64,000 bases of DNA from Escherichia phage LinBro. The stretch lies in sequence record OR896830.1; one strand, 5' to 3'. Of the stretch, positions 3,944 through 64,000 are shown piece after piece. The notes under the pieces were generated by a model that was not told the origin of the DNA, searched no databases, and saw nothing but the letters and a program-made list of their open reading frames with translations. Numbering within the stretch: position 1 is the stretch's first letter; each line of letters opens with the position of its first letter. Position numbers and translations under genes: made by a program.

Positions 3944-5290
3944 ATGAGTTCGAATATCTTCAGACTTGCTGATAGATTATTCAACCAACCTTTACTAGCC
4001 ACTGAATCATTAGCTCACTCAGCAGCAACTTATGTGAATAACAGATTGCTGGGTGATGTCCAAGCAGCAGTAAACTTTGATAAACCCAAAGGTGAAGCAA
4101 GAAGTCTTTTAAAAGTGAAAGATGACATTGCTATTATCCCTATTATGGGTGGTTTAACCCATCGTATGACATTCATTGATGCAATGTGTACAGGTGGATT
4201 AAGTTCTTATGAAGGTTTGCGTAGAGGCTTTGACGAAGCTTTAGCAGATGAGTCAATCAAGACTATTGTTCTGCACATCGATTCTGGTGGTGGTGAAGCT
4301 TCAGGTTGCTTTGAATTAGCACGTCACATTATGGCTTCAAGAGGCCAAAAGAAAATTATTGCTTATGTAGATGAGTTCGCTTGTTCCGCTGCATACGCTC
4401 TTGCATCTTCTGCTGAAGAAATTATTGCATCACCAGATGCAGATGTTGGTTCTATTGGTGTAATCATGGTTCATCAGGAATTAACTAAGGCATTTGAAAA
4501 GAATGGCGTAACAATTAACGTCATCAAAGCTGGTGAGTTTAAAGGTATGGGTTCACCATTCCAAGCACTTTCAGAAGAAAGCAAAGAAAGACTTCAAAAG
4601 AGAATTAATGATACCTACGCAACCTTTACAGGTTTTGTAGCCGAATCTCGTAATCTCTCTGAAGAAGCTGTAAAGAATACTGAGGCGAATGTTTATTCTG
4701 CTCAGGAAGCTCTTGAACTTGGTTTAATTAACTCAATCATGTCTCAAGATGATTTCTTAAATTACTTACAAGGTTCTGAAGAGGCTCCTGTAAGTTTAAA
4801 CGTTAACAATTCAGGTGAAGAAATGACTGAACAAGAAAAGCAAGAACTAGAAGCTTTGCGTCTTCAGGTTGCTCAAATGAAAGCTAAAGAACAGGAAGCT
4901 GCTTTGTCAGATTTGACTAATAAGATTTCTGCTTCTGCTGAAGCTTTTGGATTTGATGCAAAAGAAGCTGCAACGACTATTTTAGGTGCTGGTCTTGATA
5001 ACCCTCTGAGTGTTCTGTTTATGAATGCTATGGAAGGTGCTAACCAGAAACTTAATGAAACTATCGCGTCCCATGCTTCTGCAATGGAAGAAAAAGAATC
5101 AGAAATTACCAAGCTGAAAGAAACTGCTGGTGCTGTTCTTGAACATTCTAATGCTATGGAAGAAATGGGTAATGACGGCGAAGCTGATTTGGTTGAAGAA
5201 GAAAAAGAACCAGCTAAGAATGCTTCCGAAGACACCGCTGAACAACGCAAACTGGCTCTCCAGAATGCTCTAAAATCTCTTATCAAATAA
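3944..5290 (+). CDS. prohead protease (S49/ClpP-fold) fused to acidic coiled-coil scaffold-like C-terminus
   Basis: N-terminal region resembles the S49 (SppA-like) peptidase fold (IDSGGGEASG, DEFACSAAYALASSA); C-terminal half is Ala/Glu/Lys-rich coiled coil; sits between portal and capsid. Confidence 0.7.
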   Translation: MSSNIFRLADRLFNQPLLATESLAHSAATYVNNRLLGDVQAAVNFDKPKGEARSLLKVKDDIAIIPIMGGLTHRMTFIDAMCTGGLSSYEGLRRGFDEALADESIKTIVLHIDSGGGEASGCFELARHIMASRGQKKIIAYVDEFACSAAYALASSAEEIIASPDADVGSIGVIMVHQELTKAFEKNGVTINVIKAGEFKGMGSPFQALSEESKERLQKRINDTYATFTGFVAESRNLSEEAVKNTEANVYSAQEALELGLINSIMSQDDFLNYLQGSEEAPVSLNVNNSGEEMTEQEKQELEALRLQVAQMKAKEQEAALSDLTNKISASAEAFGFDAKEAATTILGAGLDNPLSVLFMNAMEGANQKLNETIASHASAMEEKESEITKLKETAGAVLEHSNAMEEMGNDGEADLVEEEKEPAKNASEDTAEQRKLALQNALKSLIK

Positions 5291-5712: not shown

Positions 5713-6822
5713 ATGTTGACTAATTCTGAAAAAAGCAGATTTTTCCTTGCTGACCTGACTGGTGAAGTCCAGTCTATCCCTAATACTTATGGGTATATTT
5801 CCAACTTAGGTCTGTTCCGTTCAGCACCAATCACCCAAACTACTTTCCTTATGGACTTGACTGATTGGGATGTTAGCTTGCTTGATGCGGTAGACCGTGA
5901 TAGCCGTAAAGCAGAGACTAGCGCACCTGAGCGTGTTCGTCAAATCAGCTTCCCAATGATGTACTTCAAAGAAGTTGAAAGCATTACTCCTGATGAGATT
6001 CAGGGTGTACGTCAGCCAGGCACTGCAAACGAACTGACTACTGAAGCTGTAGTACGTGCTAAGAAGCTGATGAAGATTCGTACCAAGTTCGATATTACTC
6101 GTGAGTTCTTGTTTATGCAAGCTCTGAAGGGTAAAGTTGTTGATGCTCGTGGTACTCTGTATGCTGACCTGTACAAGCAGTTCGACGTTGAGAAGAAGAC
6201 TATTTACTTCGACCTTGACAACCCTAATGCTGACATCGATGCTGCTATTGAAGAACTGCGTATGCACATGGAAGACGAAGCTAAGACTGGCACTGTAATC
6301 AACGGTGAAGAAATTCACGTAGTTGTTGACCGTGTATTCTTCAGCAAACTGGTTAAGCACCCTAAGATTCGTGACGCTTATCTTGCACAGCAGACTCCAC
6401 TGGCTTGGCAACAGATTACTGGTTCTCTGAGAACTGGTGGTGCTGACGGCGTTCAGGCTCATATGAACACTTTCTACTACGGTGGTGTTAAGTTTGTCCA
6501 GTACAACGGTAAGTTCAAAGACAAGCGTGGTAAGGTTCATACTCTGGTTAGTATTGATGGTGTTACTCAGGATGGAACTGTAGGTGTAGGTCATGCTTTC
6601 CCTAACGTTTCTATGCTGGGTGAAGCAAACAACATCTTCGAAGTGGCATATGGCCCATGTCCTAAGATGGGTTATGCAAATACTCTGGGTCAGGAACTGT
6701 ACGTATTCGAATACGAAAAAGACCGTGACGAAGGTATTGACTTTGAAGCTCACTCTTACATGCTGCCATACTGCACACGTCCTCAGTTGCTGGTAGATGT
6801 TCGTTCTGACGCTCAAGAATAA
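5713..6822 (+). CDS. major capsid protein
   Basis: 369 aa ORF after protease/scaffold; strong RBS; pronounced highly-expressed codon bias (ctg, cgt, ggt, gaa). Confidence 0.7.
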   Translation: MLTNSEKSRFFLADLTGEVQSIPNTYGYISNLGLFRSAPITQTTFLMDLTDWDVSLLDAVDRDSRKAETSAPERVRQISFPMMYFKEVESITPDEIQGVRQPGTANELTTEAVVRAKKLMKIRTKFDITREFLFMQALKGKVVDARGTLYADLYKQFDVEKKTIYFDLDNPNADIDAAIEELRMHMEDEAKTGTVINGEEIHVVVDRVFFSKLVKHPKIRDAYLAQQTPLAWQQITGSLRTGGADGVQAHMNTFYYGGVKFVQYNGKFKDKRGKVHTLVSIDGVTQDGTVGVGHAFPNVSMLGEANNIFEVAYGPCPKMGYANTLGQELYVFEYEKDRDEGIDFEAHSYMLPYCTRPQLLVDVRSDAQE

Positions 6823-46534: not shown

Positions 46535-47731
46535 ATGAACAAAGTACAGATTATTAAAAAGAATGGCTCACTTGAAGAACCCGATATCAAAAAAGTTTTA
46601 GCAGCAGTAACTAAGTCAGCTAACAGGGTTGGATATAAAGAACTTCCACCAGATGTTACCCAAGCTCTTGAGTCAGCATTTATGAGGATTCTGGTAAAGT
46701 CCACTAAGCAGAATAATTTGCTCATCTCGGTAAATGATATTCACAGTATTGTTGAGGGTGCTTTGGCAGAAGTCAATCACGAGATTTATGAGTCTTACTC
46801 AACATATAGAAATTACCGTAAAGAGGTTGCTCAAAATTGGGACGAGCTTTACCAAAAGACTAGGGATACACTCTTCTTAGGTGACCGTGAAAATGCTAAC
46901 TTTGACAGTAGTTTAATTTCTACAAAAGGCTCAATTATTCGTGGTTACTTGACTAAAGAAATCTTTAAACAGTACCATTTAACACCAGAGGAACTTGAAG
47001 CCATTGAAAAAGGGTTTATCTACATCCATGACTTAAGAGACCTAATTTTTGGTGGTATCAACTGTTGCCTGTTTGACATCGGCAAAGTACTGAAAGGTGG
47101 CTTTGAAATGTCTGGTATCGAATACTGTGAACCAAAGTCTGTGCTGTCAGCCTTACAGGTTATTGGTGATGTAGTTCTTTCAGCAACTGCACAGCAATTT
47201 GGTGGCTTTACTTTAGCAGAGATTGATAAGGTACTTGTGCCGTATGCTAAAAAATCTTTAGTGTACCACTCAGAGAAAGCTGAAGAGTACGGAATCCCTA
47301 AAGAGCAACACTATAATTACGTAATGGAGCAATTACAGAATGAGTTAACACAAGGTTTCCAATCTCTTGAAATGAAACTCAACACTGTTCCTTGCAGTCG
47401 CGGTGATTTTGCATTTACTACTCTGACATTTGGCCTGTTGGAACCAGATATGCACAATGAAGATAACCGTCTTCAGTTTATGATTGCTAATACAATCCTT
47501 AATGTAAGGATGAACGGGCAAGGGAAAAGCAAAAAACCTGTTGTTTTTCCTAAACTTGTGTATATCTATGAAGAGACAAGACATAAACTTGATGTATGCC
47601 AAGCAAGGTTGTTTGAAAAAGCTATTGAGTGTTGCTCTAAAGCGATGTATCCAGATTTCTTAAGTGTATCTGGTCATGGTGCTGTAGCAGATGCTTTTGA
47701 GCGTTCTGGTAAGGTGATTTCACCGATGGGT
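46535..47731 (+). CDS. nrdD: anaerobic ribonucleotide reductase (class III), exon 1
   Basis: N-terminal ATP-cone; exon ends ...KVISPMG with final nt U at 47731, before the in-frame stop at 47732-47734 that lies in the intron. Confidence 0.75.
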
Positions 47732-48473
47732 TAACAAGCTCTATAGCTCATCTAAAACGTGCCTAAACAGGGAAACTCTACAGATGTAGACAATCCTGTG
47801 CTAAATGATGTACGATGTAAGAAACTATACAACATAGGAGTCTTACATGCCAAACTATCACGTCACTGAAGATGGAAAAGTCTTTAGGGAAAATGGTGTA
47901 GAGCTTACGCAGTGGAAATCCAACACTGGGTATATGAAAGTGAGGTTTTACGGTAAGAAGAATCGTGACATGTATGTCCACAGGTTAGTTGCTGAGAAAT
48001 ATGTACCTAACCCGAACAATCTTCCAATTGTAAAACATAAGGACGATAACAAACTAAATAACCACGTATCTAACTTAGAATGGGGTACTCATTCTGATAA
48101 TGCTAAAGAAGGTTATGAGAATGGATGTTACAAGTTCCACAAGCGTTCATATGCCGTGAAAGCCACACACAAAGTGACAAAGGAAGTTATTGTTACTAAG
48201 TCAATACGAGAGTTATCCAATATACTTGGATACAATCGCAAGACCATCTCTTCAATATTGAAGGGTGTAAAAGAGCATAATAACTTCGAATATGAGTTTG
48301 AATACATCTAAATGCCGAACGACTAACCGTGATGAATGTAGCGGTGTAGGGTCAAGCGACTCGAAATGGTACGCTACTTAGAAATAAGTAGAAGATATAG
48401 TCTGGACTTACTGGCGACAGTAAGCAGCTTGAATAAAGCGGGGTAAGCTTAGCGAACTTACCTGAACAATAAG
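47732..48473 (+). mobile_element. group I intron interrupting nrdD (carries an HNH ORF)
   Basis: Exon 1 ends in U, intron ends in G (aag at 48471-48473); P1 helix exon GATGGGT with guide GCTCATC (47746-47752); core elements GAACGACTAA (48317-48326) and AAGATATAGTC (48391-48401); join gives ISPMG|CRAFLSP. Confidence 0.75.
47847..48311 (+). CDS. intron-encoded HNH homing endonuclease
   Basis: 154 aa; VHRLVAEKY...HKDDNKLNNHVSNLEWGTHSDN typical of the HNH_3-type family. Confidence 0.7.
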   Translation: MPNYHVTEDGKVFRENGVELTQWKSNTGYMKVRFYGKKNRDMYVHRLVAEKYVPNPNNLPIVKHKDDNKLNNHVSNLEWGTHSDNAKEGYENGCYKFHKRSYAVKATHKVTKEVIVTKSIRELSNILGYNRKTISSILKGVKEHNNFEYEFEYI

Positions 48474-49421
48474 TGTAGAGCATTTTTATCACCATACCAT
48501 AACGAATATGGTGAAGAGTTTTATGTAGGTCGTGCTAACATTGGTGCTGTATCTTTGAACTTACCAATGATTTACCAGTATTCTAAAGAGAATGGTTTAG
48601 ATTTCTGGAAAGAGCTTGATAAGTACCTAGAGATGATTCGCAGCTTCCACAAGAAACGCTACGAAATGATTGCTAATATGCCAGCAAGCTCTAACCCTCT
48701 TGCATTCACACAAGGTGGCCTGTACAAAGGGACTAAGAAATCTACCGACAAGGTTGGCTGGGATATCGTGAAGTCCTTCACAGCTTCTTTTGGAGTTACT
48801 GCGCTTGATGAGCTATCTGTTCTTGCTGAAGGTAAACGACTTCATGAAGTTGGGAGCTATAGTTTTGCATACGATGTTCTGGCATACATCAACATGAAAA
48901 CTGAAGAGTTTAAAAATGAAGATGGCTTCTTATATGCTGTCTATGGTACTCCAGCAGAATCACTTTGTGGAACTCAACTAAAACAGTTCAGAGAAATGTT
49001 TGGTGTTATCAAAGGTGTTTCTGACAAGGAATACTTTACAAACAGTTTCCATATGAATGTTGCAGCAGACATCTCACCATTTGAGAAGCAGGACTTAGAA
49101 GAGCCATTCTTCCATATCTGTAGAGGTGGCAGAATCCAGTATGTCAGGGTAGCTAACCCAGAAAACTTAACAGCACTTAAGAGTTGTATTACAAGAGGGA
49201 TGTTGAAAGGTTTTTATCAGGGACTTAACTTTGACCTAGCAATTTGTGAGCATTGTGGTAGCAGACCAAAGGCTGATGTTGAAGAATGTGAGGTTTGCCA
49301 TTCACATGACATCTCTGTGATTAACAGGGTGTGCGGATATCTGGGATGGACTAAGATTAAAGGTGAATCCCGAATGAATGATGCAAAAATCGCTGAGATT
49401 CGTGACAGGATTTCTATGTAA
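48474..49421 (+). CDS. nrdD: anaerobic ribonucleotide reductase (class III), exon 2
   Basis: Begins CRAFLSP...GRANIGAVSLNLP; C-terminal CxxC zinc site and glycyl-radical motif RVCGYLG. Confidence 0.75.
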   Translation, partial: CRAFLSPYHNEYGEEFYVGRANIGAVSLNLPMIYQYSKENGLDFWKELDKYLEMIRSFHKKRYEMIANMPASSNPLAFTQGGLYKGTKKSTDKVGWDIVKSFTASFGVTALDELSVLAEGKRLHEVGSYSFAYDVLAYINMKTEEFKNEDGFLYAVYGTPAESLCGTQLKQFREMFGVIKGVSDKEYFTNSFHMNVAADISPFEKQDLEEPFFHICRGGRIQYVRVANPENLTALKSCITRGMLKGFYQGLNFDLAICEHCGSRPKADVEECEVCHSHDISVINRVCGYLGWTKIKGESRMNDAKIAEIRDRISM

Positions 49422-52123: not shown

Positions 52124-52394
52124 AGAGAAGTGGGAGATTTTACCATTAGTCAGTGAAGGCGGTAATGGTTGTGAAATGTACATGATACGTGGGCATGTTC
52201 CAGAACCAATTGCACTTGAGATGGTAAACAACTTTACAGATGGCTCTTACAAAGACTTAGGGGAGCCAAATATAAAGCAGCAATGGGTAAAGCCTGTACC
52301 AGACAGCACAGGTAACTGTAGTGTACTTTATCACGTTGTAGACCCTGCAAAATGCAAATCTGCAATGGCAGTAACAAACGTAACTTTTGATTGA
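52116..52394 (+). CDS. hypothetical protein
   Basis: 92 aa ORF. Confidence 0.3.
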   Translation: MAKEKWEILPLVSEGGNGCEMYMIRGHVPEPIALEMVNNFTDGSYKDLGEPNIKQQWVKPVPDSTGNCSVLYHVVDPAKCKSAMAVTNVTFD

Positions 52395-53287
52395 GAGAGA
52401 AAACTATGAAAACTGTTATTGAAGCCGTCGTCACCGCTCAAGAGAAATTCTTCCACACAGAAAAATTTAATATCATTCAATTCCCATCTGGAGAAATTGG
52501 TGGAAACTTCTCTGAAGATTTTGTTAAGTTTACTGAGCGTAATGCTGGTAAGATTGATAATGTTATAATTACTGTACAGGGATATGACAAAGATACACTG
52601 TTTGCATTAGCTTTGGCTAAGGATGCCGTTGACAGTCTTGTTCCCCAGAAATCAGCGATGAAAACCGTTGTTTTCGGGTTCTTACCAAATGCTCGATATG
52701 ACCGCCACATGTTCAAAGGTGATGCAGCAGCACTGAAAGCCTTTGCCAACCTAGTTAATGCAATGGGTTTTGATGCAGTATGTGCTCTTGACCCTCACAG
52801 TAATGTTGCAGAAAACTTATTTAAGTGCTTTCAAAGCATGAAGCAAAAAGATGTGGCAGTACACTTTGCAAGTGACCCACGCATTGATTTCTTGGTAGCC
52901 CCAGATGCAGGTGCAGCTAAGAAGACTGAAGATACCGCTAAAGAGGTGGATAAGCCGTATATCACAATGTCTAAGGTGCGCAATCTTAAGACTGGAGAAA
53001 TCACTGGTATGCGAATCCTTGACGATGTTGATTTGACCGATAAAACTGTCATGATTCTTGATGATATCTGTGATGGTGGTCGAACATTCGTAGAGGCAGC
53101 TAAACACCTACGTGAAGCAGGTGCAAAACGTGTGGAACTCTATGTAACTCATGGTATTTTCTCTAAAGGTGTTGAAAACTTACTTGACAACGGTATTGAC
53201 CATATCTACACTACAAACACTTTAGGCGAAGCTAAAGACCGTGGCTTAACACATTATGGTCAAGTTACTGTAGCAAACATTGATTAG
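52391..53287 (+). CDS. ribose-phosphate pyrophosphokinase (Prs)-like phosphoribosyltransferase-fold protein
   Basis: PRPP-binding loop VMILDDICDGGRTF near the C-terminal third; ~300 aa as for Prs. Confidence 0.6.
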   Translation: MREKTMKTVIEAVVTAQEKFFHTEKFNIIQFPSGEIGGNFSEDFVKFTERNAGKIDNVIITVQGYDKDTLFALALAKDAVDSLVPQKSAMKTVVFGFLPNARYDRHMFKGDAAALKAFANLVNAMGFDAVCALDPHSNVAENLFKCFQSMKQKDVAVHFASDPRIDFLVAPDAGAAKKTEDTAKEVDKPYITMSKVRNLKTGEITGMRILDDVDLTDKTVMILDDICDGGRTFVEAAKHLREAGAKRVELYVTHGIFSKGVENLLDNGIDHIYTTNTLGEAKDRGLTHYGQVTVANID

Positions 53288-53295
53288 GTAACAGT

Positions 53296-53787
53296 ATGAA
53301 TAAGGGTTATTTTGAAAGATACCTAATATATGAACCAGATACAGGTTTATTAATTTGGAGAGTAACCCTTTGCAGTACCGCTATTGCTGGTAATGTGGCT
53401 GGCACAAGGTCTAAGAAGGGTTATATCCAAGTCCAGATAAATAAGAAGAGGTACTATGCACATAATATTGCATGGATTATGTCTGGAGGTGAGATACCAA
53501 GTGGATATGAGATAGACCACATAGACCTTGATAAATCTAATAATAAGTTGGAGAATTTAAGACTTAGCACAAAGTCACAAAATCAGAGGAATAGGGGTAT
53601 ATACAAGAATAATAAAACTGGTGTGAAGGGTGTAAGTTTTTGTAAACAAACAGGTCTTTACAAAGCAAGAGTCATGCTTTACCATAAAGAATACTTTTGT
53701 GGAAGATTTAAAACGGTAGAAGAAGCAAAAGAAGCTGTAATTAAAAAGCGAATAGAACTTCATGGTGAGTTTGCAAGACATAACTAA
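53296..53787 (+). CDS. free-standing HNH homing endonuclease with AP2-like DNA-binding domain
   Basis: YEIDHIDLDKSNNKLENLRLSTKSQN HNH_3-like motif followed by GVKGVSF...GLYKARV...FKTVEEAKEA AP2-like segment. Confidence 0.65.
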   Translation: MNKGYFERYLIYEPDTGLLIWRVTLCSTAIAGNVAGTRSKKGYIQVQINKKRYYAHNIAWIMSGGEIPSGYEIDHIDLDKSNNKLENLRLSTKSQNQRNRGIYKNNKTGVKGVSFCKQTGLYKARVMLYHKEYFCGRFKTVEEAKEAVIKKRIELHGEFARHN

Positions 53788-53801: not shown

Positions 53802-55583
53802 ATGAGTAAGTCACTTTACGCAGTACCAGCAGGTCTTAATGCAGATGCTTACAAGGCATCACATATATATCAGTATCCAGATGCTACGCAATATCTTATG
53901 TTGAACCTGACACCACGTAGTGATAAATGGTTTAACAGCCCCTTAGCAATTGACGGTGTAGTAGCTTTTGGTATTCAACGTTTCGTTAAAGATTACTTGA
54001 TAGACCATTGGAATGCTACGTTCTTTGAACGTGACAAAAAAGAAGCAATTGACGAAATCTTAGAAGTCATGAATGGTGTTCTGGGCAAAGATGCTATCGG
54101 TCGAGAGCATTGGGAGGCACTTCACGACTTAGGTTATCTACCAGTTGAAGTATACGCTGTAGAAGAAGGCACAGTTGTCCCTATGCGTGTTCCGATGATT
54201 GTTTTCCAGAACACTGTTTCAGGTTTCCATTGGGTAGCAGGTTATCTGGAAGATGCTTTCTCTGCTGAGATTTGGAAGGCTTGTACCATTGCAACTATTG
54301 CATTGCACTACAAACGTATCTGTAAGAAGTGGGCTGACCTTACTTGTGACAACGACTTGCATTTGCCTTATCAGTGCCATGACTTTGCTATGCGTGGTAT
54401 GTCCGGCTTTACTGATGACGCATTTAACGCTGTAGGCCACTTAACCAGCTTTAAAGGAACTGATAGCTTCCCTGCTGTGTATACGGCTAAACGAATCTAT
54501 GGACAGTCCTACCCAATCTCTGATATTGGTAGCTCTGTACCAGCCACTGAGCACTCTGTAATGTGTGCAAACATTGCTTGGGAAGGTGGTAATGAGTTGA
54601 TTGAAGAAGAAAGACGCTTTAAAGGTGAGTTACAGACCTTCCGTCGTTTCTTAACAGAAACTTACCCAACTGGTATTGCAAGTATTGTTTCAGACACTTA
54701 TAACTTCTGGAGAACTGTGTCAGAAATCTTACCAGCACTTCGTAAAGAAATTATGGAACGTGATGGTAAGCTGGTAATTCGCCCTGACTCTGGAGACCCT
54801 GTACATATTGTCACAGGCTATAAAGCAATCCACTTAGAGTGTGCTAAGAAGGCTTATTATGAGCACCTAAGCAAGCTGGAAGCTAGTGACACAATGTTGA
54901 ATGCTGTTCTGAACATGAAGCTTGAAAACATCAACTATGGTATTGCTGGATGGCTACTGTCAGAAGGCTACGAAATGGTTGTTGACAGAGAAGACTTTGA
55001 AGTTGCTGATACAGTGATGTTGAAAAATGCTTATATGGTTGGCTCTGCAAACGTTGTAACACGTCCTGTAGCAGAGATTGATGGAGCTATTAAGACCCTG
55101 TACAACATCTTCGGAGGGACTATTAACTCTAAAGGGTTTAAGGTACTGGATGAGCACATCGGCCTTATCTATGGTGACTCTATCACGCTGGAACGTGCAA
55201 ACGAAATCCTGAAGCGTCTGTATGAAATGGGTTTTGCAAGCTCTAACGTAGTGTTTGGTGTAGGCTCTTACACTTACCAGTACATGACTCGCGACACCTT
55301 TGCATTTGCTGTCAAAGCAACTCTTGCAAGCATTGGTGGTAAAGAGATTATGCTTGCAAAAGACCCTAAAACAGATAGTGGTGTTAAGAAATCTGCCTTT
55401 GGTGGTGTAGCACCTATGTGGGATGGTGATAAGCTGAAAGCTGTAGATGGCTATGGATTCCAGAGTTTTGCAGATGTACTTGACCACCAAGCTTGTGCTT
55501 TACGTTTAGTCTTTAGCGACTCTGAGCAGTTCGGTTATACAACTCTTGGAGATATTCGAAATAATATTGACAAGCAGCTTTAA
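53802..55583 (+). CDS. nicotinamide phosphoribosyltransferase (NAMPT/NadV)-like protein
   Basis: N-terminal ADAYKASHIYQYPDAT resembles the NAMPT signature (DxYK..H..QYP); 593 aa. Confidence 0.65.
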   Translation: MSKSLYAVPAGLNADAYKASHIYQYPDATQYLMLNLTPRSDKWFNSPLAIDGVVAFGIQRFVKDYLIDHWNATFFERDKKEAIDEILEVMNGVLGKDAIGREHWEALHDLGYLPVEVYAVEEGTVVPMRVPMIVFQNTVSGFHWVAGYLEDAFSAEIWKACTIATIALHYKRICKKWADLTCDNDLHLPYQCHDFAMRGMSGFTDDAFNAVGHLTSFKGTDSFPAVYTAKRIYGQSYPISDIGSSVPATEHSVMCANIAWEGGNELIEEERRFKGELQTFRRFLTETYPTGIASIVSDTYNFWRTVSEILPALRKEIMERDGKLVIRPDSGDPVHIVTGYKAIHLECAKKAYYEHLSKLEASDTMLNAVLNMKLENINYGIAGWLLSEGYEMVVDREDFEVADTVMLKNAYMVGSANVVTRPVAEIDGAIKTLYNIFGGTINSKGFKVLDEHIGLIYGDSITLERANEILKRLYEMGFASSNVVFGVGSYTYQYMTRDTFAFAVKATLASIGGKEIMLAKDPKTDSGVKKSAFGGVAPMWDGDKLKAVDGYGFQSFADVLDHQACALRLVFSDSEQFGYTTLGDIRNNIDKQL

Positions 55584-61511: not shown

Positions 61512-61523
61512 GGTTAAGATACA

Positions 61524-61544
61524 GGCTCCTTCGGGAGCCTTTTT
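61524..61544 (+). terminator. rho-independent terminator
   Basis: GGCTCC-ttcg-GGAGCC hairpin followed by TTTTT. Confidence 0.65.
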
Positions 61545-62669: not shown

Positions 62670-62871
62670 AAAGACACGGAAAATTATCCGGTCAGCAGTA
62701 TTTATTGGAAGAAATGAAGTGATTCCTTTTACAGCAAATGATGTGATAGTCTACAGGAAAAAATTAGCATTCAGTTATTGCTTACGTGGCTTTATCTCCC
62801 AGCCATTAGAAGATTTTAAAAATCGTTGTGGTAAAGGCATCATCATTCAAGAGGCAATTATTCATGGCTGA
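62644..62871 (+). CDS. hypothetical protein
   Basis: 75 aa ORF. Confidence 0.25.
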   Translation: MKVILARDKKTRKIIRSAVFIGRNEVIPFTANDVIVYRKKLAFSYCLRGFISQPLEDFKNRCGKGIIIQEAIIHG

Positions 62872-63064
62872 CTTCTGCAAAGACTGTGCTATCGAGATGT
62901 TTGGGCGTGATACAGGTGATTTAAAAGGTCTTATCACTGAAGATGACTTTAAAGCTGGCTACGCAATGCCAGTAATCTGTGAAGGTTGTGGGTGCATCTG
63001 GGTAGACCACGAAGGACAGCGTGTAAAACCTTCAGAAGATAAAGAGTCTTGGGAGAGATGTTAA
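62828..63064 (+). CDS. small cysteine-rich (zinc-binding) protein
   Basis: CKDC...CEGCGC; true start probably internal Met (MADFCKDC). Confidence 0.3.
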   Translation: MVKASSFKRQLFMADFCKDCAIEMFGRDTGDLKGLITEDDFKAGYAMPVICEGCGCIWVDHEGQRVKPSEDKESWERC

Positions 63065-63850
63065 ATGGGTATTGTAAAAATAATCAATGGTGATATCTTT
63101 GCCGCATTTGATAAAGGTAAGTTTGACATCATCGGTCACGGTTGCAACTGTATGAATTTAATGGGTGCAGGTATCGCTGACAAGATTTCTAAACTTTACC
63201 CAAAAGCATATGAGACCGATACAGAAGTTTATCTATATGCAGGTGGTATAGGACACAAGCCCTGTGAAAATTTACTAGGCAATTTCTCTGTAGCACGTTT
63301 AGAACAAGGCCGTATAGCTAACCTTTACACTCAGCTTAAGACTGGTAAAGATGCCCGATACAGTGCTTTAGAATCATCTTTGAAACAGCTTAACAGATAC
63401 TGTGAAGTTAACCAGTTGAAGAAAGTTGGTCTACCTATGATTGGTGCAGGTATCGGTGGGCTAGACCCTCAAGCCGTCACAGTTATCATTAATCAGGTGA
63501 TGAAGAGTGTAGATGTGTATCTGTATGTCTATGAAGGAGAGATGTACCACAAGTTACGCTCAGGTTGGAAGAACTACTGTGAACCAGAATACTTTGCAGG
63601 TGTAGTAACGTTCACAGACAATACAGTTACCCTCTTCAGACGAAGAAAAGGTAAGATACATCAAAGTAACCCTCCGGTTGAAAAGATGTCTCTGAGTAAC
63701 GCTCTAGTTACCCACCTGTCGAAGAGCAATCACAGAATTGCAGTAACATTTGGCAGTGATGCAGATACTTATATCTATGCAAGGACTGATGAGGGTATTG
63801 AGTTAATCTTCTCTTCACCAGAGCTTACCTTCTTAGACGCAAAGAACTAA
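63065..63850 (+). CDS. macro-domain (ADP-ribose-binding/processing) protein with C-terminal extension
   Basis: IINGDIF...DIIGHGCNCMNLMGAGIADKI and PMIGAGIGGLDP match the two glycine-rich ADP-ribose-binding loops of macro domains; 261 aa. Confidence 0.55.
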   Translation: MGIVKIINGDIFAAFDKGKFDIIGHGCNCMNLMGAGIADKISKLYPKAYETDTEVYLYAGGIGHKPCENLLGNFSVARLEQGRIANLYTQLKTGKDARYSALESSLKQLNRYCEVNQLKKVGLPMIGAGIGGLDPQAVTVIINQVMKSVDVYLYVYEGEMYHKLRSGWKNYCEPEYFAGVVTFTDNTVTLFRRRKGKIHQSNPPVEKMSLSNALVTHLSKSNHRIAVTFGSDADTYIYARTDEGIELIFSSPELTFLDAKN

Positions 63851-64000
63851 GAAATTTCGTAGTATATTCACAATAGACTAAGCCTTTCTTATCTGGTAAA
63901 TTTTTCAGGTAAGGAGGGCTTTTTCATTTCAGATTTGTGCAGGTAGAGTTCTGTAGAGAAATCTGTAGAGAGAATTTTAAACTCCAAAGAGAAAATTCAT

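Follow-up and report, generated by a model that had tools for sequence, protein, structure and literature searches.

The experimental link between phage macro domains and a defence system, that of AdfM with DarTG2, is only recent. By HIDEN-SEQ, tk.4 was found to be the sole T4 gene conditionally required on a host expressing DarTG2, and a clean knockout of tk.4 sensitises T4 to this DNA-ADP-ribosylating system; the gene was named adfM, for anti-DarT factor Macrodomain, and the evidence on Tk.4 is genetic (bioRxiv 10.1101/2025.11.20.689424). PhiKZ gp104, which was independently named AdfM, frees DNA of the ADP-ribose that DarT2 attaches, as shown in vitro, and neutralises DarT2 toxicity; its activity is reduced when a conserved Asn of the catalytic site is mutated (construct N23A) (PMC13309987, Cell Rep 2026). 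Human TARG1/OARD1 and BT1257 of B. thetaiotaomicron are standalone cellular macro proteins.

The sequence analysed here, referred to below as the window, is a stretch of 64,000 nt from Escherichia phage LinBro (OR896830.1), which is matched by Felixounavirus genomes (Ounavirinae) at 95–96 % nucleotide identity. The felixounaviruses are FelixO1-like myoviruses that infect E. coli, Salmonella and Shigella, and they are widely used in Salmonella and E. coli diagnostics and therapy. The ORF listing of the window contains a complete CDS (63065..63850, + strand, stop codon included) for a protein of 261 aa with two domains: a macro domain of the Tk.4/AdfM type (aa 1–156; 63065..63532, +) and an orphan C-terminal domain (aa 157–261; 63533..63847, +). 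The original prediction had described this product, from the sequence alone, as a macro-domain protein with an uncharacterised C-terminal extension, and that description proved to be genuine. Beyond it lie the membership of a large and long-annotated family, which includes T4 tk.4 and is labelled 'phosphatase' in PHROG 335, the presence of Gln at the catalytic Lys position, and recombination at the locus. The match to PHROG 335 spans aa 1–260 (E=1.9e–111). Orthologues in Felixounavirus records are called 'phosphatase', 'macro domain protein' or 'O-acetyl-ADP-ribose deacetylase', and some records call the family Poa1p-like phosphatase. In the literature searched, no paper or experiment on the macro gene of Felix O1 or Felixounavirus was found.

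The macro half and its catalytic motif

The macro half matches Pfam PF01661 (32.1 bits; gathering score, 22; E=1.2e–7), and aa 25–141 align with profile positions 2–117 of 118. It has the three-layer α/β/α macro fold, and both Gly-rich ADP-ribose-binding loops are present. Their core motifs, MGAGIA and PxIGAGIGGLD, are invariant across 19 relatives and align with their counterparts in TARG1, DarG and PhiKZ AdfM. The macro half is an additional member of a family that is already known and has recently been characterised. By tblastn, the macro part was found in 2,799 of 50,697 phage records, T-even tk.4 included.

Loop 1, GHGCNCMNLMGAGIADKI (aa 24–41; 63134..63187, +), aligns with Tk.4, PhiKZ gp104 and TARG1, and its invariant residues in the family alignment are H25, G26, N28, C29, N31, M33, G34, A35, G36 and A38. 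N28 is aligned to the Asn of ITVN in PhiKZ AdfM, which is the only Asn of that conserved motif. Loop 2, PMIGAGIGGLDP (aa 124–135; 63434..63469, +), aligns as the diphosphate/distal-ribose-binding loop; P124, G127, A128, G129, I130, G132, L133 and D134 are invariant, and the counterparts are PPLGxGNGGL in DarG and PPLGCANGGLD in PhiKZ AdfM.

Between the loops lies an invariant NLYTQ motif (aa 86–90; 63320..63334, +), placed by a HMMER alignment to TARG1 and by other alignments. Where TARG1 (K84) and the FPTK of DarG and PhiKZ AdfM have the catalytic Lys, the window protein has Q90, and the HMMER alignment sets Gly131 against TARG1 Asp125. Because Gln90 and Gly131 replace the catalytic Lys and TARG1 Asp125, a DarG-type mechanism cannot be assumed. 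Judged from the alignments, the catalytic motif groups the window protein with Tk.4, not with DarG. The replacement of the Lys is also the chief reason for caution in reading the protein as a glycohydrolase. It is no argument against an AdfM-like role in vivo, since T4 Tk.4 shares the Gln. How members of this clade would hydrolyse thymidine-linked ADP-ribose, if they do so at all, is the question that the shared substitution raises.

The same two substitutions would fit a non-catalytic ADP-ribose reader, in which the macro domain would do no more than bind ADP-ribosylated targets or free ADPr, leaving the effector or adaptor function to the C-terminal domain. Non-enzymatic macro domains exist (e.g. 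macroH2A), and the record of one relative carries the label 'high-affinity ADP-ribose binding module'. Against this stand the invariance of N28, the counterpart of the Asn whose mutation weakens PhiKZ AdfM, and the fact that the macro half is very strongly constrained, as befits an enzyme: median ω (Nei–Gojobori, 205 pairs) was 0.06, as compared with approximately 0.20 for the C-terminal half. Catalysis is, moreover, the simplest explanation of the Tk.4 phenotype, and a pure reader is considered very unlikely.

The C-terminal domain

The C-terminal domain is real, with a confidently predicted fold and evidence of purifying selection. Modelled alone, it gave a pLDDT of 82.3 and a pTM of 0.73, with a helix, six β-strands and a C-terminal helix, and its secondary structure was identical in the isolated and the full-length models. 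As the ω values indicate, both halves of the gene are constrained coding sequence, and the tail tolerates several-fold more replacements. In comparison with the Michonne-type orthologues, identity is 75–77 % in the macro half and 45–49 % in the tail. Among 20 near-identical alleles, amino-acid variation clusters at aa 158–169, 181–187 and 244–254, and site 247 has four states.

When residues 157–261 were searched against Pfam, NCBIfam, PDB sequences and PHROGs, phrog_335 was the only match. For the C-terminal 105 aa alone, zero candidates were returned from 5.8 billion proteins by a word-indexed search, which is insensitive and with which the full-length query worked. A profile of 14 C-terminal sequences gave 11 matches from 1.84 billion representative proteins; the true matches were all either fused to the same type of macro domain or gene-call fragments from an internal Met. 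Two apparent standalone copies (P0033 and P0039) were ruled out as fragments beginning at internal Met residues, and long repetitive matches (retroelement, β-propeller, fn3) were treated as spurious hits to unrelated repeat-rich or β-rich proteins. The domain was thus seen only in fusion with a Tk.4-type macro domain, in Ounavirinae-type phages.

The same restriction was observed in the IMG/VR loci, where the extension of approximately 100 aa is limited to Ounavirinae-type contigs of about 85–93 kb (79 loci). Of the 45 Tk.4-type ORFs on contigs outside the Ounavirinae, nearly all are standalone (135–186 aa); the three that reach 209–249 aa have an unrelated tail. This third type of extension (L058, L077, L082) ends in ...EEFEEFL-like helices. 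A metagenomic protein of 339 aa (P0026) joins a Tk.4-type macro domain to another C-terminal domain, Pfam PF20274, and represents a further case of an accessory module gained by the Tk.4-type macro clade. Divergent two-domain relatives, at 33–45 % identity, include Pectobacterium phages Wc4 and Arno18. They keep the order rIIB, lysin, macro, and this shared synteny argues that the architecture was inherited within the lineage.

At the junction of the two domains lies the motif [WF]-x-N-[YF]-S-x-P-x-x-F-D-G-V (aa 168–180; 63566..63604, +), which reads WKNYCEPEYFAGV in the window. It is the most conserved stretch of the C-terminal half: P174 and G179 are invariant, conservation reaches 70 % or more at N170, F177, D178 and V180, and the motif is also found in phage Wc4. 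This conservation and the full-length model, with its high pTM, suggest that the C-terminal domain packs rigidly against the macro domain.

Two simple identities for the extension were considered and set aside. In pI, the domain varies between 4.6 and 8.9 among family members and is neither consistently basic nor consistently acidic, so that nucleic-acid binding is unsupported by charge; since the pI is not conserved and the tail is not homologous to that of DarG, DNA binding or mimicry of ssDNA is not indicated. A fused copy of T4 tk.3, the small gene that overlaps tk.4, was ruled out by hhalign (probability 0.1 %).

Locus organization and allelic exchange

The macro gene is the last of a tightly packed string of genes that runs, in order, from i-spanin and o-spanin through four small ORFs. 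In a consensus scan, terminator-like hairpins were found at both ends of the string, at 61523–61540 and, just 3′ of the macro stop codon and followed by a T-run, at 63880..63921 (+). The ORF that ends right at the macro start (TAAATG) encodes 66 aa (62864..63064, +; MADFCKDC...VICEGCGC...) with a CxxC...CxGC spacing that is typical of a zinc ribbon and gave no Pfam match. Wherever Felixounavirus and Michonne-type phages have the homologous two-domain macro gene, this ORF accompanies it at 74–100 % conservation, although it is left unannotated in some records; in the metagenomic locus L083 a different CPxC...CxxC mini-ORF takes its place. An obligate partnership of this ORF with the macro gene was ruled out, as it is missing in Kolesnikvirus, Wc4 and L084.

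On the 5′ side of the string lie the genes for lysin, rIIB, rIIA, Nampt (53802..55583), an HNH endonuclease and PRPP synthetase (52391..53287). The endonuclease ORF (HNH_3; 53296..53787, +) has a weak AP2-domain match and splits the PRPP synthetase/Nampt pair for NAD+ salvage. Another HNH_3 homing-endonuclease ORF lies between the two ORFs that encode the N- and C-terminal parts of NrdD, the anaerobic ribonucleotide reductase (46535..47734, 47847..48311 and 48555..49421, +); this arrangement may be due to an insertion, of the intron or the intein-like kind, or the gene may truly be split.

The original prediction had further proposed that the macro protein might cooperate with the NAD+ module upstream. 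The module itself is real, but a functional link to the macro gene was not found. The rIIA, rIIB and lysis genes and the hairpin at 61523–61540 intervene between the two, and the macro gene and standalone Tk.4 homologues co-occur across many phage groups regardless of the module. In addition, the Nampt/PRPP-synthetase (NARP2) pathway begins at nicotinamide (PMC13464706), and not at ADP-ribose such as a macro domain would release.

It is apparent that the macro locus is a recombination hot spot. In felixounaviruses of the Si3/BPS17L1/finno type, the allele is 54 % identical to that of the window in the macro half and 26 % in the C-terminal half, with flanking genes that are 93–100 % identical (98.5–100 % for the zinc-ribbon-like ORF). 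When two such loci (L031 and L032) were compared with the window, nucleotide identity dropped approximately 143 nt into the macro gene (window ~63208) and returned approximately 450 nt 3′ of the macro stop, beyond the end of the window. These breakpoints delimit a cassette of about 1.1 kb, comprising most of the macro gene, that has been exchanged between alleles in some felixounaviruses; the small gene downstream of the macro gene has likewise been replaced. In phage VpaE1 (L005), repeats of approximately 100 nt (4665–4767, 5022–5126 and 6096–6194) sit between the small genes 3′ of the macro gene, in the region beyond the window end, and cross-match other phages at 77–96 % identity. These repeats may serve as promoters or terminators; alternatively, recombination may act on them, which would help to account for the mosaicism.

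The orthologue of Kolesnikvirus (260 aa) occupies the same position after the spanins (Erwinia phage vEam_PM_27, L003 2498..3280; also L033 and L034). Its C-terminal stretch of approximately 100 aa had no detectable homology to the Felixounavirus domain by hhalign (probability 0.1 %), and may reflect either domain replacement or extreme divergence. A frameshifted allele of 179 aa (P0008; 15 member sequences) is also present in public data. It ends TTVNQNTLQV in the +1 frame, so that the macro domain is whole and the C-terminal domain is lost; the equivalent in the window would run from 63065 to ~63570 and then in the alternate frame 63513..63605 (+). Either the truncation is natural or a sequencing error has recurred.

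Proposed function and comparison with known systems

The original prediction had suggested that the protein counters ADP-ribosylating immunity, and homology lends backing to that suggestion. The macro half is 35 % identical to T4 Tk.4 over aa 3–157 (E=3e–24), a degree of identity that would not by itself guarantee the same substrate, and it matches the DarG HMMs. The favoured reading, held somewhat short of even confidence, is that the protein is a counter-defence ADP-ribosylglycohydrolase of the AdfM/Tk.4 type, probably directed against DarT2, with a lineage-specific accessory domain. The two invariant Gly-rich loops of the macro domain would serve to bind the ADP-ribose moiety, and the domain would most likely remove the ADP-ribose that a host toxin of the DarT2 type puts on thymidines of single-stranded phage DNA, so that phage replication could go on. 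The 105-residue C-terminal domain, linked to the macro domain via the conserved junction motif, would act as a lineage-specific accessory module; we infer that it might tune specificity by way of a partner, be it the modified substrate, the replication machinery or the toxin itself. Counting against this reading are the absence of a DarT-binding domain of the DarG type and the existence of the P0008 allele, which does without the C-terminal domain.

The substrate might, alternatively, be small and soluble. According to Aravind's group, most phage macro domains act on small ADPr derivatives (PMC9503650). On such an account the macro domain would hydrolyse or sequester ADPr-1′′-phosphate, O-acetyl-ADPr or TIR-derived signals (gcADPR, His-ADPR) rather than acting on DNA, would thereby blunt Thoeris-like or other NAD+-derived signalling defences, and would carry the C-terminal domain as a structural or regulatory appendage. 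This is thought unlikely, although it deserves consideration. The sole functional datum for the clade, that for T4 tk.4, is protection from the DNA-modifying DarTG2, among defence-related HMMs the DarG models alone were matched, and sponge-like or Thoeris-related features were not found.

A further alternative is that ADP-ribosylation of proteins or RNA is reversed, with the C-terminal domain recruiting the modified macromolecule. TARG1, one of the solved proteins most similar to the window protein in sequence and fold, acts on ADP-ribosylated proteins, and macro domains are versatile over protein, RNA and DNA substrates. The modification could stem from host ART toxins, of which CmdT, which modifies mRNA, is an example, or from ARTs that competing phages inject or express; enterobacteria do have an RNA-targeting ART defence, CmdTAC (PMC11618068). 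CmdTAC is, however, reported to restrict T-even phages although T4 has Tk.4, and the catalytic dyad of TARG1 (K84, D125) is not conserved in the window protein. Reversal of protein or RNA modification therefore appears improbable.

As to the C-terminal domain, there is a small chance that it is a new fold with a second, non-catalytic mode of counter-defence, in which it would bind and block a host ADP-ribosyltransferase or another defence protein. If so, the window protein would be a convergent, phage-borne analogue of the two-mode DarG antitoxin, and the fast divergence, the allele swaps and the non-homologous tail of Kolesnikvirus would represent matching to differing variants of host toxins.

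The occurrence of a macro domain in a phage will not surprise the specialist. New here are the fused, lineage-restricted and fast-evolving orphan domain and the allelic cassette. The two-domain form constitutes a natural experiment, in which a constrained enzyme core is joined to a module that is rapidly diversifying, recombining and restricted to one lineage, and it offers a tractable test of the retargeting of an anti-defence enzyme. Should the range of toxin variants or substrates that the protein counters be set by the tail, this would illustrate how phages achieve such retargeting and would add one more small domain to the toolkit of ADP-ribose conflicts. A core gene of the AdfM type in FelixO1-like phages would, in addition, help to predict their host range on strains that carry DarTG.

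Of the known systems, T4 Tk.4 bears the closest resemblance to the window protein in its catalytic motif. Both proteins belong to PHROG 335, both are encoded by a single-copy gene in a lytic enterobacterial myovirus, and they have in common the motifs HGCNC, MGxGxA, NLYTQ, with Gln at the position of the catalytic Lys, and PxIGAGIG. Tk.4 is, however, a standalone macro protein of 155 aa from the tk/vs region, whereas the window gene follows the spanins and its product has an additional C-terminal domain of 105 aa. The function of Tk.4 has been tested experimentally; the window protein is likened to it by sequence.

PhiKZ gp104, likewise a phage macro domain, falls in the DarG-like clade, and its loops carry motifs matching those of the window protein, among them the conserved Asn and GGLD. 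It differs in its low identity to the window protein (approximately 22 %), in its retention of the DarG-type FPTK lysine, in its single-domain architecture and in its import into the phage nucleus. It is also matched far better by the DarG HMM of PADLOC (E=4e–39, as compared with 4e–13 for the window protein, for which positions 18–146 of 329 were aligned). The match of the window protein to the NCBIfam DarG equivalog model NF048014 is likewise partial: it scores 47.7 bits, where the cut-off is 250, and takes in only the macro region of the model (positions 4–152 of 338).

The catalytic dyad of TARG1/OARD1, K84/D125, is replaced by Q90/G131 in the window protein. In DarG of M. tuberculosis, T. 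aquaticus and Thermosipho, as in PhiKZ AdfM, the motif is PTK, in contrast to the LYTQ found here. No darT lies beside the window gene, the neighbours of which are spanins and small phage ORFs, and the DarT-binding domain of DarG2 is approximately 180 aa in length, as against 105 aa for the C-terminal domain described here, with no sequence similarity between the two. DarG2 provides, nonetheless, a precedent for a macro domain that is paired with a toxin-binding domain.
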